From a virus (lineage: Duplodnaviria; Heunggongvirae; Uroviricota; Caudoviricetes): a stretch of DNA of 64,000 bases. Of this stretch, positions 58,259-63,997 are shown one piece after another. Location: positions 1 through 64,000 of IMG/VR virus record IMGVR_UViG_3300046804_001058; one strand, written 5' to 3'. A program made the position numbers and the translations under genes. The notes under the pieces are model-generated. The model was not told the DNA's origin and ran no database searches. It saw nothing but the letters and a program-made list of their open reading frames with translations. The first letter of the stretch is position 1; each line of letters begins with the position of its first letter.

Positions 58259-59494
58259 ATGAAAAATATAACAATTGTTGGTGGAGGATTGTCAGGATGG
58301 TTGACAGCATTATATGTAAAAAAGATTCAATTTTCACAAGAAGTTGTAGTTATTGAAAGTTCTGAAATAGGTATATTAGGAGCAGGAGAAGGTTCTGTTC
58401 CTTACTTAAGAAGTATGTTAATTGATTTGTTGGAAATTGACGAATCTATTTTTATTGAAAAAACAAAAAGTACCAAGAAGGCAGCTATAAACTTTGAAAA
58501 TTGGTCAGGTAATGGTACGAAATTTGACCATGATTTTATTGGTAAGAATCGTAAATACAATTCTGATGGCACTCCTGATTATAGTAAATCATATGCCTAT
58601 CATTTTGACGCAAGATTAATTGCTGATTTCTTAAAGAGCATTGCTATTGAGAGAGGTGTTAAAGTTATTGAAGGAGAGGTTGTTGATTTCAATTTAGACA
58701 TAGATAAAAACATTACAAGTATAGTTTTAAAGGACAATGCTGTTGTAGATACAAACTTTGTTTTTGATTGTAGTGGATTTAAGAGATTAATAATAGGAGG
58801 ATTATATAACTCATCTTGGACATCTTATGAAGATCAATTAAAAGTAAATACTGCTGTTCCATTTTTCCTTCCAAGAACTGACAATGAAGAATTTGTAAAG
58901 ACAGATGCAATTGCAATGGGATATGGTTGGATGTGGAAGATTCCTTTACAAGATAGATGGGGTTGTGGATATGTATTTGATAATAATTATATTACAGAAG
59001 CTGAAGCTAAAGATGAAGTCAAGTCTTACTTAGGAATTGATGTATCATTTAATAACACTTTAAGATTTAACTCAGGATGTTTCCAAGAAACTTGGGTAAA
59101 TAATTGTGTTGCAATAGGTTTGAGTTCAGGATTTATGGAGCCATTAGAGGCAACATCTATAATGATTTCAATTTTGCAATTATTTGCATTTCATGAAGAA
59201 GTTTTAAAGGTAGGAATTGATAGATACTCAGAGGTTAGAGATACTTATAATGAATTTATTAGAAGCCTTAATCAAGAATGTATGTTATTTGTTAGGCATC
59301 ATTATGTTTGCGATAAGGAAGATACTGACTTTTGGATTGATTATAAGAATCTACCATTGCCTGAAAAACTTGAAAAATATAAAAGAAACAACTTTGATGA
59401 TATAACTATGTTGCATTATTCAGACAAGAATATTAAACTATTTAATAATTGGAGTTACAAACTTGTAAATAATGGTAACTTTGATTTACAATAA
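58259..59494 (+). CDS. flavin-dependent halogenase (tryptophan halogenase family)
   Basis: N-terminal FAD fold 'ITIVGGGLSGWLTALYV' (compare RebH/PrnA 'IVGGGTAGW'). 'GAGEGSVPYL' matches GxGEATIP. 'KKAAINFENW' aligns with the catalytic-Lys region 'FKAAIKFVNW'. 'GWMWKIPL' is the WxWxIP signature. Starts 4 nt after the fibre stop. Confidence 0.7.
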   Translation: MKNITIVGGGLSGWLTALYVKKIQFSQEVVVIESSEIGILGAGEGSVPYLRSMLIDLLEIDESIFIEKTKSTKKAAINFENWSGNGTKFDHDFIGKNRKYNSDGTPDYSKSYAYHFDARLIADFLKSIAIERGVKVIEGEVVDFNLDIDKNITSIVLKDNAVVDTNFVFDCSGFKRLIIGGLYNSSWTSYEDQLKVNTAVPFFLPRTDNEEFVKTDAIAMGYGWMWKIPLQDRWGCGYVFDNNYITEAEAKDEVKSYLGIDVSFNNTLRFNSGCFQETWVNNCVAIGLSSGFMEPLEATSIMISILQLFAFHEEVLKVGIDRYSEVRDTYNEFIRSLNQECMLFVRHHYVCDKEDTDFWIDYKNLPLPEKLEKYKRNNFDDITMLHYSDKNIKLFNNWSYKLVNNGNFDLQ

Positions 59495-59501
59495 AAATAA
59501 A

Positions 59502-59738
59502 ATGAAGATAGTCAAATTAGAGTTGCTAGAATTTATTGGAGTAGCAATGAGAATCTTTTCATTTAGCATACTAGCAATAATGAGTAAAGATACACCACTT
59601 TTTACAATGTGGGTTATAAATACATTAGATGCAATTCTTTTAACGTATTGTGCGTGGAAGAGGAACAATCGTGCATATGTAGTACTAAATGTATTTTGGC
59701 TTATAGTAGGTATTGTTGGAATGATAAATTCTTTTTAA
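59502..59738 (+). CDS. small hydrophobic membrane protein (2-3 predicted TM helices)
   Basis: The track calls 59472..59738, but ATG 59502 (MKIVKLELLEF...) begins after the halogenase stop. Hydrophobic segments: FIGVAMRIFSFSILAIM and VVLNVFWLIVGIVGMI. Confidence 0.4.
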   Translation: MKIVKLELLEFIGVAMRIFSFSILAIMSKDTPLFTMWVINTLDAILLTYCAWKRNNRAYVVLNVFWLIVGIVGMINSF

Positions 59739-59777
59739 TTTTAAATAATTTTTTAACAAAATATAATACCAAACATC

Positions 59778-61749: not shown

Positions 61750-61979
61750 TAGTAGATATCAGGTTTAATACAAATTACCCTGAGAAGAGTAAGTTTGAAT
61801 GGAGGGTGTTGGTAGATGGGAAAGAAAACTTAGTAAATACTATAAGATGTGAAGTTCCTACATATAGCAGCACTACATTTATTGAAGGTCACGGAATGAA
61901 ATGGCACATGAGTGCCATAGCAAATCAAGTGATTATTCAAGAACATATTAATAACGTAATCCACGCACAAATTATATGA
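61746..61979 (+). CDS. hypothetical protein (77 aa)
   Basis: ATGA-coupled ORF between the sulfotransferase and the kinase. Confidence 0.35.
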   Translation: MIVDIRFNTNYPEKSKFEWRVLVDGKENLVNTIRCEVPTYSSTTFIEGHGMKWHMSAIANQVIIQEHINNVIHAQII

Positions 61980-62413
61980 TAGTAGTATTATTTGGTCAGC
62001 CAGCTTCTGGCAAAACCACCTTAGCTAAGAAACTCATAGACAATAACTTTCATCACATAGATGGAGATAGTTTAAGAGATGTATTTAAAAACAAAGACTA
62101 TAGTAGAGAAGGACGTATCAAAAACTTGAATAGAGCTAGTGACATTGCTCACTACTTAGAGTTTATGGAAGGTCGTGATATAGTGTTGTCTTTGGTATAT
62201 CCTTATGAAGAAGCTAGAGAGTATCTTAGAAACTTAAACAAAAAAGCTAGATGGATCTACCTAATATATCAAGAAGATAGAGGTAGAGAACATTACAAAG
62301 TTGAAGACTTTGAAATCCCTCATGTGGACAATGTGGATTTAATTATTAACACTTCACACACTTCAGTAGAAGATAGTGTGGATCAAATCAAGCGTGTATG
62401 CAGAATATTTTAG
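61976..62413 (+). CDS. APS (adenylyl-sulfate) kinase-like P-loop kinase
   Basis: 'VVLFGQPASGKTTLAKKL' P-loop. 'HHIDGDSLRDVF...REGRIKNLNRASDIAHYLEFMEGRDIVLSLVYPYEEAREYLR' parallels CysC 'LDGDNVRHGL...DReENIRRigEVAkLF..aG.iv..afISPy...R...R'. Confidence 0.55.
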   Translation: MIVVLFGQPASGKTTLAKKLIDNNFHHIDGDSLRDVFKNKDYSREGRIKNLNRASDIAHYLEFMEGRDIVLSLVYPYEEAREYLRNLNKKARWIYLIYQEDRGREHYKVEDFEIPHVDNVDLIINTSHTSVEDSVDQIKRVCRIF

Positions 62414-62784
62414 CTAAAGGAAATCGCAAGACAGATGGTTATGCAATGTTCATAGGAAGATGGCAACCCTGGCATGCTGGTCACCAATGGTTAATTGATC
62501 AACAACTAAATCAAGGAAAGAAAGTGCTATTATGTGTAAGAGATGTACACAAGGATGATAAAAATCCTTGGTCTGCTTATGAAATTATGATGAATCTTGC
62601 TAACGAGTTAGAAGATTTAATTGAAGATGGTAAGGTGAGAATAATGATTATACCAGACATTGAGTCTGTAAACTTTGGTAGAGGAGTTGGATATGATATT
62701 ATTGAACACGTACCACCACAAGAAATAAATGATATCTCAGCCACAAATATTAGAGAACAATTAAAGGCTGAAGGGAAGTTATAA
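62398..62784 (+). CDS. cytidylyltransferase-family nucleotidyltransferase, TagD/HldE-domain-II-like (128 aa)
   Basis: 'AMFIGRWQPWHAGHQWLI' is an HxGH motif (compare TagD 'GTFDLLHWGHIKLL'). C-terminal 'ISATNIREQL' matches the conserved 'ISTTKI(K/R)E' motif. Length matches TagD (129 aa). Confidence 0.6.
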   Translation: MQNILAKGNRKTDGYAMFIGRWQPWHAGHQWLIDQQLNQGKKVLLCVRDVHKDDKNPWSAYEIMMNLANELEDLIEDGKVRIMIIPDIESVNFGRGVGYDIIEHVPPQEINDISATNIREQLKAEGKL

Positions 62785-63997
62785 CTTTCTCCGCTGTGAT
62801 ACCCCTATGACATTCAAAATGCTTAGGGGTATTTTTATTTATAGGACACCAGTCCCAGTCCCCTTTATCAAATTTAAAGTTAGGATTGTTCCAACAACCA
62901 TGACATAAAGTTGTATCTGTAACTCTTATACAGTTAGATTGAAACTCATGATCTGCCTCTGTGAAGTTACTAATCATCACTACAGGAGTACCAATAGCCC
63001 ATGCTAACCAGCTAAGTCCACTAGATAATCCTATAAAGAACTTAGCACTTGCTATTACAGACATTGTATTCTCCATAGATGTATCACTAATCTTAATGCA
63101 ATTCTTAAGTGGATTGTCTTCTTTAGATACATTTATCACTGAGTATCCTGAATCATTTAAAAAGTTAATAACTTCCTGCCAACCTTCTCTAGTCCAGAAT
63201 TTACATCCAGCTGTGCTATTGGTAGCAATTGCTACATAAGGAAAGTCCATAGAAGTTATTGGTCTATTAACATAGTTTATTTTAGGTTTTATCTCTTTCC
63301 ATTCTAATCCTAGTATATTACTAGCTGCCTTTTGTAAAGGAATTGTATTACATAACTCTGGTTCTTTATCTGGACTATATCTCCAACCAATAATATATTG
63401 ACCGTGTATATTATTTACTGTAGTTCCTGGAAGAACAAATTCAATTTCTGGATACGCTTCTTTAAACAAGAAGTTCTTATGTGTGCTTAATATAACATGA
63501 CATTTATGTTTCTTTCTAAACTCCTCACAGTATGGTACCCAAGCAATTGTATCTCCTAATGATGCACTATCAATAGAGATGTATACACGCTTACCTTCAT
63601 AGTTTAATGTCTCTTCATAGATGAGCTCACCGTCTTCCCACACTTTGGCTGTCCATTTAGTAAACCACTGTCTATTTAACTTCACCCAACTATTGCTACT
63701 GATTGTATTTTCATAATGACATACACCTGCCTCATCAAAGAACTTAACTAAGAACTTACTATCACTGTTACCTGTAATTTCTAGTCTAGGATTTTCTACA
63801 AACAATAGAGATATATCCACCTTTGTTTTTCTTTTCTTCTTAGGTTTGATAGGAATGAACATTATATTGTTATATAACTCATCATGCTCTTCTGCAAATC
63901 TATTGTCTGGTATATCATAGTGCACTATACCATGTATAAACTTTGATCTAACTTCATCTAGATCAGTATCTACAGGTAGAAGATAGTTAGTAAACAT
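62750..63997 (-). CDS. glycosyltransferase family 9-like protein, convergent; its 3' end overlaps the + strand operon by 35 nt
   Basis: Only minus-strand gene. C-terminal region '...AKFFIGLSSGLSWLAWAIGTPVVMISNFT' parallels the GT9 'GNDSGPMHLAAALGTPTVALFGPT' motif. The N-terminal about 200 aa are a distinct domain. Confidence 0.5.
   Translation of the reverse strand: MFTNYLLPVDTDLDEVRSKFIHGIVHYDIPDNRFAEEHDELYNNIMFIPIKPKKKRKTKVDISLLFVENPRLEITGNSDSKFLVKFFDEAGVCHYENTISSNSWVKLNRQWFTKWTAKVWEDGELIYEETLNYEGKRVYISIDSASLGDTIAWVPYCEEFRKKHKCHVILSTHKNFLFKEAYPEIEFVLPGTTVNNIHGQYIIGWRYSPDKEPELCNTIPLQKAASNILGLEWKEIKPKINYVNRPITSMDFPYVAIATNSTAGCKFWTREGWQEVINFLNDSGYSVINVSKEDNPLKNCIKISDTSMENTMSVIASAKFFIGLSSGLSWLAWAIGTPVVMISNFTEADHEFQSNCIRVTDTTLCHGCWNNPNFKFDKGDWDWCPINKNTPKHFECHRGITAEKVITSLQPLIVL
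62799..62845 (+). terminator. rho-independent terminator closing the + strand operon (ATACCCCTA ... TAGGGGTAT plus TTTTTATTTAT)
   Basis: Perfect 9-bp stem at 62801-62809 and 62824-62832, 14-nt loop, then a T-run. It lies inside the 3' coding end of the convergent minus-strand gene. Confidence 0.55.

Follow-up and report, generated by a model that had tools for sequence, protein, structure and literature searches.

We analysed a stretch of 64,000 nucleotides from a tailed phage (IMG/VR record IMGVR_UViG_3300046804_001058, positions 1 to 64,000; hereafter the window), focusing on a block of enzyme genes that begins at position 58259, straight behind the last tail-fibre gene, and runs to the window's edge. 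In our best explanation, an aquatic crAss-like phage has here a virion-glycosylation locus whose variable, fibre-proximal end is this block, and we rate it somewhat better than an even chance that its products O-heptosylate the phage's own fibres in the cytoplasm and that the resulting glycan is then extended, methylated and sulfated. Six enzyme genes and three small open reading frames (ORFs) make up the cassette: a flavin-dependent halogenase, a transferase of GT9 fold (gt288), a sulfotransferase, a kinase, an adenylyltransferase (NT128) and, on the opposite strand, the end of a multidomain enzyme with a TibC-like heptosyltransferase (BAHT) domain, together with an 88-residue membrane protein, a 73-residue coiled-coil protein and a 77-residue protein. 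A preliminary description of the same DNA had spoken of eight to nine enzymes, which is an overcount, but its ORFs were confirmed at their coordinates by an ORF check, and the hidden Markov model searches that it had called for recovered the predicted families in Pfam, with support from PHROGs and NCBIfam. The halogenase gene does start 4 nt behind a tail-fibre gene (ATG at 58259, preceding fibre stop at 58254), which also supports the claim that the cassette lies in the structural (late) gene region of the phage. Fibre decoration had been listed there beside modification of a host surface glycan and production of a small molecule; of the three it is now the favoured option, given the match to the TibC/AAH family and the soluble nature of the enzymes.

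The minus-strand ORF (62750-63997) is convergent with the plus-strand genes, shares 35 nt with the last of them and is the 3' part of a longer gene that the window truncates. Contigs L091 and L092 (L numbers denote the contigs and loci compared here) are 100% identical to window positions 60563-64000, and L091 holds the full gene of 3489 nt at its positions 2188-5676, encoding 1162 residues; the apparent start methionine of the window ORF is internal to that protein (the M of MFTNY, preceded by QYED). An exact-protein lookup of the 415-residue ORF returned no match because the ORF is a window-truncated fragment. By Pfam, the 1162-residue enzyme comprises, in order, an S-adenosylmethionine (SAM) methyltransferase domain, a GT1-type domain (PF00534) and the TibC-like BAHT domain, and only the BAHT domain falls within the window. 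The preliminary description had reported two GT9 glycosyltransferases here: the 415-residue ORF does match Glyco_transf_9 (2.5e-11), but it is a convergent minus-strand ORF that the edge of the window cuts, not a whole gene. Against NCBIfam TIGR04414 the BAHT domain scores 262.8 bits (E 4.6e-78), above the curated equivalog cut-off of 200, and it matches the TibC structure PDB 4rap at 1.3e-48. The catalytic aspartate is kept, SLGDTIAW of the window aligning with GTLGDLLGW of TibC (D110), and the chain of the TibC D110A mutant (PDB 4rb4) has an alanine at the aligned position. The Cys4 iron finger is likewise kept (CHGCW...WCP...FEC in the window, CYGCW...WCP...FEC in TibC), and D149, C365, C368, C384 and C396 are invariant in the BAHT family alignment (A3). 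Judged by its sequence, the minus-strand domain is a TibC/AAH-family protein O-heptosyltransferase.

The donor of this domain is probably ADP-heptose, because relatives of the window phage insert ADP-heptose pathway genes at the locus. A PfkB kinase and an HldC-like nucleotidyltransferase occur at the same locus in L019, L020, L085, L087 and L016, most of which also carry an HAD-like phosphatase, a cupin and an NAD epimerase; L019, L020 and L087 have the fullest sets, namely PfkB, the HldC-like protein, an HAD-like protein of ~100 residues, the cupin and the epimerase. The cupin-domain protein occupies the place in which one would look for the SIS-type isomerase GmhA (L020 11704-14290, L019 8150-10695 and L087 13032-15642). 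The GT9 fold of the second transferase, gt288, also counts in favour of this donor.

A scan of IMG/VR identified 80 contigs in which a BAHT domain ends a multidomain protein, ~950-1160 residues long in the 12 contigs mapped. The multidomain enzyme is the constant element of these loci, and the sulfation genes with gt288 are an optional add-on, present in ~15 of 82 loci and in varying order: L004, L005, L007 and L008 have five contiguous, co-directional genes (BAHT, kinase, adenylyltransferase, gt288 and sulfotransferase), L009 has a convergent layout like that of the window, and extra FkbM methyltransferases are common in related loci. The synteny comparison found the gene set again in more than 12 independent viral contigs, its proteins being 44-91% identical, which argues that the family matches of the cassette are not due to chance. 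The preliminary description could recall no phage module with this combination; we also found no publication describing one, yet the core recurs in ~80 IMG/VR contigs. Among GenBank phages the BAHT domain is rare, being found in Microcystis phage Mel-JY01 and in three huge uncultured phages, and a nucleotide search of the block against GenBank phages matched only short fragments of the halogenase and BAHT genes. Mel-JY01 (L084), which is cultured, encodes at record positions 4750-8430 a 1226-residue protein named 'methyltransferase FkbM' whose C-terminal domain is TibC-like (41% identity); the gene adjoins that of a structural protein, with a 639-residue cytidylyltransferase-like gene nearby, and the system could be studied experimentally in this phage.

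The candidate acceptors are fibre proteins of the window. Its three fibres contain 275 G-X-Y triplets, with Thr at X in 65% and Ser at Y in 72% and with Pro and charged residues rare. The 586-residue fibre contributes 93 of these triplets (X mostly Thr, Y mostly Ser) and the 714-residue fibre 145, with Thr at X in 93, Ser at Y in 111 and few Pro or charged residues at these positions. The 888-residue fibre is made up of collagen-like tracts, a Ser-rich beta-roll of ~550 residues and a C-terminal S74 intramolecular chaperone domain, and it has a 15-residue repeat (residue-identity autocorrelation peaking at lag 15, value 0.30). The E. coli enzymes TibC and AAH O-heptosylate Ser in the passenger repeats of TibA and AIDA-I, and the repeats of the 888-residue fibre, which resemble autotransporter repeats, are a candidate strand-loop-strand acceptor. 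No autotransporter passenger is encoded near the BAHT gene; its neighbours are phage fibres with (GTS)n tracts and 15-residue Ser-rich repeats. Ser/Thr-rich (GXY) tracts of at least 8 triplets lie within 10 kb in 60 of 82 BAHT-bearing loci, and every tract of at least 8 triplets found near BAHT loci is Ser/Thr-rich. As a control for this association, loci were anchored on a 1416-residue protein encoded upstream of the fibres (p1416), which gave 10 loci, 6 of them informative and too few for statistics; all six are consistent with the association, the BAHT gene being seen in 1, cassette genes at the locus edge in 3 and neither feature in 2. On the model of the O-glycosylated collagens of Riftia and of Bacillus anthracis BclA, the glycan may stabilise the triple helix of the window's fibres, which lacks both proline and charge pairs. 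The (GTS)n repeat DNA at 53500-56300 also yields many long, overlapping ORFs on both strands (for example 53501-54388, minus strand, 295 residues, rich in Pro, Val, Glu and Asp), which are repeat artefacts and not genes.

In the mechanism that we infer, from sugar donor and acceptor through the order of the steps and the ATP sulfurylase activity to the biological benefit, fibre proteins would build up in the cytoplasm late in infection, and the TibC-like domain would move heptose from ADP-heptose to Ser or Thr in their Pro-free (Gly-Thr-Ser)n collagen tracts, in the Ser-rich 15-residue beta-roll repeats, or in both. ADP-heptose would come from the presumed Bacteroidota host, some relatives encoding a pathway of their own. 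The glycan would then be extended by gt288 and the GT1 domain and methylated by the methyltransferase domain. NT128, acting as an ATP sulfurylase, would turn ATP and sulfate into adenosine 5'-phosphosulfate (APS), the lid-less kinase would convert APS to 3'-phosphoadenosine-5'-phosphosulfate (PAPS), and the sulfotransferase would use this phage-made PAPS to sulfate the glycan, the outcome being polyanionic, glycan-coated fibres. The proposed extension of the glycan by gt288 could, for example, add a second heptose. An AlphaFold model of gt288 from the single sequence reached a predicted local distance difference test score (pLDDT) of 32 and was redone with a 16-sequence alignment; the resulting model has a GT-B fold whose nearest structures are those of GT9 enzymes. 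No match to gt288 was found in Pfam or NCBIfam, Glyco_transf_9 included, and its family profile had no match among PDB sequences.

An alternative interpretation is that the enzymes remodel the host envelope, heptosylating, extending and sulfating the lipopolysaccharide (LPS) core, capsule or host adhesins for receptor masking, superinfection exclusion or release. GT9 enzymes classically act on the LPS core, the best structural matches of gt288 include WaaC and WaaF, TibC and AAH natively modify bacterial surface adhesins, and the cellular counterparts of the kinase and NT128 sit in capsule loci with Wzi, Wza and sulfotransferases. We nevertheless consider this interpretation unlikely, because the locus is tied to fibre genes across ~80 contigs, Ser/Thr-rich collagen accompanying it in 60 of 82, and because no flippase, undecaprenyl phosphate (Und-P) glycosyltransferase or Gtr-type (GtrA/B) machinery was seen. 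All cassette enzymes are predicted to be soluble, with no transmembrane segment, which favours cytoplasmic modification of virion proteins over an Und-P-linked surface glycan. Surface remodelling for exclusion is, moreover, mainly a strategy of temperate phages, and the annotated parts of the window showed neither an integrase nor a lysogeny gene.

Heptose could also be destined for DNA. In reconstituted phage gene clusters, a cytidylyltransferase-like enzyme and a GT-B glycosyltransferase serve to install mono- and di-heptose on 5-hydroxymethylcytosine (5hmC; bioRxiv 10.1101/2023.12.21.572611), and the window genes could by analogy belong to a DNA hypermodification system whose glycan is then sulfated. 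This is very improbable, since the 5hmC glycosyltransferases resemble T4 beta-GT and sulfotransferases are not mentioned for the described clusters (bioRxiv 10.1101/2023.12.21.572611), whereas the window enzyme passes the equivalog threshold of protein O-heptosyltransferases. Nor did the annotated ORFs include a cytosine methyltransferase, a TET/5mYOX enzyme or a dCMP hydroxymethylase, the remaining ~50 kb of the genome not having been examined.

Sulfation is the second part of the proposed pathway, and we consider it likely that the sulfotransferase, the kinase and NT128 form a self-contained route from sulfate through APS and PAPS to a sulfated product. The sulfotransferase matches Sulfotransfer_3 at 1.7e-15 (58.3 bits against a cut-off of 27) and Sulfotransfer_1 at 1.1e-9 (38.6 against 22), and both PAPS-binding motifs are present in its translation (5'-PSB, PRAGSTLL; 3'-PB, IRDLRDIFAS). 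It matches the carbohydrate sulfotransferase NoeE weakly (1e-7), and no informative solved relative was found, the N-terminal matches to TPST and PKS-ST being weak. The best PDB matches of the kinase are APS kinases (3e-7), and the list consists mostly of APS kinases and the kinase domains of PAPS synthases. Compared with canonical CysC of Flavobacteriales, it keeps the P-loop, DGDxxR, [FY]S, R47, N50, PY and YExP, and has a 19-residue lid deleted; it scores below the full-length equivalog cut-offs of NCBIfam (45.9 against 127 and 39.6 against 138.7).

NT128 had been described as a TagD-like cytidylyltransferase for sugar-nucleotide activation, an assignment that did not hold. Its motifs are an HxGH within GRWQPWHAGH and a C-terminal ISATNIR, and the family as a whole has IGRxQPxHxGH, NP, GR[GD]xGY and ISATxIR invariant. 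A family profile searched against the PDB matched only nicotinamide mononucleotide (NMN) adenylyltransferases (E 1.7e-10), placing its nearest relatives among NadM and archaeal NMN adenylyltransferases, and aligned with them over the N-terminal, ATP-binding half. The score against the NMN adenylyltransferase model of NCBIfam was 36.3 bits (equivalog cut-off 127). A TagD-type enzyme was rejected, given only the generic CTP_transf_like match and no TagD, GCT or HldE chain among the PDB matches at E<=10. TagD- or HldC-like sugar activation was rejected too: relatives with a genuine HldC-like gene (L020 and L087) keep NT128 as well, and this co-occurrence argues that NT128 is not a heptose-1-phosphate adenylyltransferase.

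Fusions and gene neighbourhoods point instead to APS kinase and sulfur assimilation. In viral loci, presence is nested (sulfotransferase > kinase > adenylyltransferase): 13 have the sulfotransferase, 14 the kinase and 12 the adenylyltransferase, the last of these never without the kinase, with kinase and sulfotransferase only in 2 and the sulfotransferase only in 1. An exhaustive search placed 462 clusters (at 50% identity) in the NT128 family at E<=1e-10, and 8 of 10 fused representatives carry an APS_kinase domain, in both domain orders and including full-length canonical domains (1e-40 to 1e-69). In the 80 cellular or metagenome-assembled genome (MAG) loci whose neighbourhoods were compared, a short kinase gene lies immediately upstream of the adenylyltransferase (NT) gene in 42-45. 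Capsule clusters in which Wzi and Wza are joined by a Sulfotransfer_5 gene make up the loci of Marinimicrobia type; in a Verrucomicrobiota locus, GT4 and Sulfotransfer_1 genes stand next to a kinase-NT fusion; the order in Flavobacteriales is canonical CysC, NT, a CysQ-like phosphatase, Wzx and a sulfotransferase; and the order in Nitrospiraceae is Rrf2, sulfite reductase, CysH and NT. The nested presence, the fusions and these cellular neighbourhoods together tie NT128 to sulfate activation, and we propose that it is a non-canonical ATP sulfurylase that makes APS, similar to known sulfurylases in how it would work and not as a member of their sequence families. The pair or its fusion is widespread in cellular and MAG loci (L102, L109, L119, L152, L159, L160, L172 and L142), which suggests an unannotated sulfate-activation route across these lineages.

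Phage genes for NAD+ salvage are well known, and the kinase and NT128 could instead be a NadR-like pair of ribosylnicotinamide kinase and NMN adenylyltransferase, or another nucleotide-cofactor pair, placed only fortuitously in a hotspot of accessory genes. Among solved structures NT128 is closest to NMN adenylyltransferases, many homologues bear that name at JGI, and a kinase-NT fusion occurs in the early region of Xylella and Xanthomonas phages without a sulfotransferase. We think this improbable because the kinase matches APS kinases and not the kinase domains of NadR, with the substrate motifs of CysC kept; the alignment of NT128 with NMN adenylyltransferases covers the ATP-binding half only; its fusion partners are canonical APS kinases; its neighbours include CysH, sulfite reductase, CysQ and three families of sulfotransferase; and its presence is nested with the sulfotransferase in phage loci.

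The preliminary description had placed the halogenase in one module with the other enzymes, but its distribution does not bear out a fixed place for it in a single pathway. With the 88-residue gene it was found only in L089 (92% nucleotide identity) and L090 (84%), at the same position, and it was absent from all 80 contigs that the TibC-like domain had retrieved; by this pattern the two genes appear to be a recent lineage-specific insert and not a step of a conserved pathway. The 88-residue protein, which travels with the halogenase, is the only cassette protein with transmembrane-like segments. The halogenase matches PrnA (PDB 4z43) at 1.2e-63, with the GxGxxG motif, Lys79, WxWxIP and Glu346 aligned (GGGLSGW, the Lys in KKAAINF, GWMWKIP and the Glu in EPLEAT). 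It has 411 residues to the 538 of PrnA, lacks PrnA residues 113-148, and its alignment stops near PrnA residue 451, so that the C-terminal ~85 residues, which in PrnA help bind tryptophan, are missing. Free tryptophan is a doubtful substrate because this binding module is absent. The intact catalytic residues are compatible with a different role for the block, the making or tailoring of a small molecule or peptide that is halogenated, sulfated and glycosylated, and a halogenase with a sulfotransferase and glycosyltransferases is a typical natural-product tailoring set, for example in glycopeptides. That role is nonetheless highly unlikely: no scaffold genes were seen (non-ribosomal peptide synthetase, polyketide synthase, or precursor of a ribosomally synthesized and post-translationally modified peptide with a maturase), the halogenase occurs in only two related loci while the other genes persist, and the key transferase belongs to a protein-modifying family.

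Several points weigh against the reading of the block as a fibre-modifying pathway, or against parts of it. The phage is uncultured and the whole reading rests on computation, that is, on family identities, gene architecture, synteny, fusions and neighbourhoods. The fibres are put forward as acceptor from gene adjacency only, an association that lacks a proper control set, and the known substrates of BAHTs are autotransporter passengers, with no collagen-like or phage protein among them. No ADP-heptose pathway gene is encoded in the 64 kb of the window or in the 6.5 kb that follow. The GT9 label of gt288 comes from fold and motifs only, in a model of medium confidence, and hhalign of gt288 against the BAHT family gave an insignificant probability of 6.8%. 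For NT128, no match to the sulfurylase families (Sat PF01747, CysD/CysN) was found in Pfam, in NCBIfam or in the PDB profile search at E<=10. In marine archaea the pair lies in a SAM-cycle operon (AhcY, MetK, kinase, NT, GlyA), a context that fits sulfur assimilation and other adenosine chemistry too, and siphophages of Xylella, Xanthomonas and Stenotrophomonas carry a 248-residue kinase-NT fusion in their early-gene region with no sulfotransferase. In Xylella phage Salvo (L094) this fusion is at record positions 15167-15913, and a 'cysteine dioxygenase' gene lies ~4 kb upstream.

The window itself is, by its structural genes, part of a crAss-like (Crassvirales) phage genome: it encodes two crAss tail ring proteins and a crAss muzzle protein (Table 1) along with terminase, portal and major capsid proteins. 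L091 continues past base 64000 with a DUF6165 protein, small ORFs and a GH19 lysozyme-like gene; with phage DNA thus on both sides, a prophage-host junction was rejected, and the possibility, raised in the preliminary description, that the block is host chromosome is excluded. Its close relatives, from environmental metagenomes, are contigs ~110-117 kb long, one of which was binned in a 'Cytophagia bacterium' MAG, and several phage-like contigs with the same genes were binned in Bacteroidota MAGs; this binning fits a Bacteroidota host, with which it is consistent without being proof. The lineage is uncultured, and the sole relative of its major capsid protein is that of Leptolyngbya phage Lbo-JY46 (26% identity). 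Two giant ORFs, 3810 and 1416 residues long (window 37593-53277), lie directly upstream of the fibre genes; they have no Pfam domains, have homologues of 4273 and 1687 residues at the same position in L001, and probably encode crAss cargo or virion RNA-polymerase-type proteins.

The strong terminator that had been said to end the block is only partly borne out, in that a terminator-like hairpin with a U-run closes the plus-strand operon. It begins 10 nt past the operon's stop, within the coding sequence of the convergent gene and not at 63997, and folding gave a dG of -16.5 kcal/mol (z -3.2 against shuffles). A consensus terminator scan found nothing at the block end and missed this hairpin because of its long loop. 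A second hairpin without a U-run (60017-60052; dG -12.8 kcal/mol, z -3.1) sits in the 55-nt gap between the coiled-coil gene and gt288, and a -10-like TATAAT lies at 59762-59767 in the AT-rich gap ahead of the coiled-coil gene; together these may be internal transcription signals within the block. The coiled-coil gene is found at the same position in L085, L087 and L088, with tblastn matches in L004-L009, and a role for its product in fibre assembly is a guess. Homologues of the 77-residue protein lie directly beside the kinase-NT pair in unrelated contigs (L051 7935-8168, L148 5316-5549, and also L100). Behind the adenylyltransferase, many relatives have a DUF2061 membrane protein of 70-75 residues (for example L085 12511-12723 and L087 15932-16156; also L116, L134 and L148), which is missing from the window; the 88-residue CBU_0592-family membrane protein that the window has beside the halogenase is unrelated to it.

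Table 1 Features of the window. Positions count from the first base of the window; values against family names are E values unless given in bits.
Feature	Position	Strand	Basis and remarks
crAss tail ring protein 2	21360-22094		Pfam CrAss_Ring_2 2.3e-18
crAss tail ring protein 1	22574-23542		Pfam CrAss_Ring_1 2.1e-10
crAss muzzle protein	23548-28041		Pfam crAss_MUZ 4.5e-37
Collagen-like fibre, 586 aa	15368-17128	+	Pfam Collagen 6.7e-35, Peptidase_S74; (Gly-Thr-Ser)n tracts, C-terminal S74 chaperone; candidate acceptor
Collagen-like fibre, 714 aa	53418-55562	+	Pfam Collagen 1.5e-56; 45% Ser/Thr; candidate acceptor
Fibre, 888 aa	55588-58254	+	Pfam Collagen 4.7e-16, Peptidase_S74 5.2e-14, weak beta-roll match
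Flavin-dependent halogenase, PrnA family, 411 aa	58259-59494	+	Pfam Trp_halogenase 5.6e-95
Small membrane protein, 88 aa	59472-59738	+	NCBIfam CBU_0592 family, 26.4 bits against 25
Coiled-coil protein, 73 aa, Ala/Glu/Lys-rich	59778-59999	+	Conserved just downstream of fibres in relatives
GT9-fold glycosyltransferase gt288, 288 aa	60055-60921	+	Predicted fold and motifs
PAPS-dependent sulfotransferase, 273 aa	60928-61749	+	Pfam Sulfotransfer_3, Sulfotransfer_1; phrog_27463 4.4e-41
77-aa protein	61746-61979	+	Homologues beside kinase/adenylyltransferase pair in L051, L100, L148
Lid-less APS-kinase-like kinase, 145 aa	61976-62413	+	Pfam APS_kinase 4.4e-10, 40.2 bits against 21.1
NadM-like adenylyltransferase NT128, 128 aa	62398-62784	+	Pfam CTP_transf_like 1.4e-4, 22.5 bits against 21
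3' end (last 415 codons) of 1162-aa enzyme gene	62750-64000	-	TIGR04414, PDB TibC, full gene in L091
Terminator-like hairpin with U-run	62794-62843	+	10-bp core stem (minimum free energy fold: 14 bp paired in that arm)

Compared with E. coli TibC and AAH, the window domain is of the same family, with the same catalytic Asp, Cys4 iron finger and GT9 fold, and is predicted to be a soluble cytoplasmic enzyme that probably uses ADP-heptose. It differs in being the C-terminus of a 1162-residue protein with methyltransferase and GT1 domains and in being phage-borne, beside collagen-like and beta-roll fibres, with a second GT9-fold enzyme and sulfation genes alongside. Virion glycosylation by phages has a precedent, in that a 2023 study by Freeman et al., which PMC11256854 mentions, is said to have found that mycobacteriophage glycosyltransferases modify capsid and tail-tube proteins. 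The likeness lies in phage enzymes that would glycosylate the phage's own structural proteins in the cytoplasm before release; the differences lie in the glycosyltransferase families, in the hosts (Actinobacteria against presumed Bacteroidota) and in the targets (capsid and tail tube against fibres). We know of no heptose, sulfation or methylation in mycobacteriophage virion glycosylation. Outside tailed phages, the GXT repeats of the collagen-like BclA fibre of B. anthracis are O-glycosylated on Thr, O-glycosylated Thr (galactosyl-Thr in Riftia cuticle collagen) can stabilise Pro-free collagen helices, and the collagen-like fibrils of Mimivirus are glycosylated. These share with the window's fibres the Gly-X-Thr/Ser collagen-like repeats without hydroxyproline and the external location, and O-glycans are their counterpart to the modification proposed here, but their enzymes are unrelated, their sugars are rhamnose and anthrose or galactose, and they include no phage tail fibre and no heptose or sulfate.

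Bifunctional PAPS synthases are known as metazoan PAPSS1/2 (APS kinase followed by ATP sulfurylase), as fungal and bacterial Sat-CysC and as CysNC. Like these, the system seen here pairs an adenylyltransferase with a 3'-kinase, fused in both orders and beside PAPS consumers; unlike them, its putative sulfurylase is a NadM-like domain of ~110-130 residues with no detectable similarity to Sat or CysD/N, and the phage kinase is without the 19-residue lid. Halogenases occur in 78 phage records, mostly of cyanophages and pelagiphages, and VirX1 (PDB 6qgm) and the 'tryptophan halogenase' of HTVC008M share with the window protein their Pfam family, catalytic motifs and status as phage accessory genes. 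The window protein is 39% identical to its nearest homologue from a cultured phage, is shorter, has no C-terminal substrate module and stands behind a fibre gene in a crAss-like phage. The 5hmC-heptosylating clusters resemble the proposed system in phage heptose activation and a GT-B glycosyltransferase and differ in being T4 beta-GT-like, in acting on DNA and in being accompanied by cytosine methyltransferase and TET genes (bioRxiv 10.1101/2023.12.21.572611).

The enzyme families and phage virion glycosylation were thus already known, and the candidate sulfurylase is the newest element. We found no publication on a phage TibC-type protein heptosyltransferase, on its fusion to methyltransferase and GT1 domains beside collagen-like fibres, on a sulfation module attached to phage fibre glycosylation, or on a NadM-like adenylyltransferase acting as an ATP sulfurylase. 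The combined claim, that NT128 represents a third class of ATP sulfurylase, that the phage makes its own PAPS and that its collagen-like fibres bear methylated, sulfated heptoglycans, is one that we put forward tentatively, at a little less than even chances.

If these proposals are correct, sulfation and heptosylation of phage virion proteins would each be seen here for the first time, the window's fibres would be the first non-autotransporter substrates of a BAHT, and virion glycosylation, shown so far in mycobacteriophages only, would reach crAss-like phages of Bacteroidota with a different chemistry that combines protein O-heptosylation, sulfation and methylation. This would change the view of adsorption, of adherence to mucus and polysaccharides and of host range in abundant environmental phages, and the compact multidomain enzymes could serve glyco-engineering. 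The NT128 family occurs in Marinimicrobia, Flavobacteriales, Nitrospiraceae, Verrucomicrobiota, marine archaea and phages; genomes that have been scored as lacking sat and cysDN (Marinimicrobia, Flavobacteriales, Nitrospira and marine archaea) may therefore be able to make APS and PAPS, which would affect metabolic reconstructions, both for sulfur assimilation and for the way in which sulfated polysaccharides are made in the ocean.

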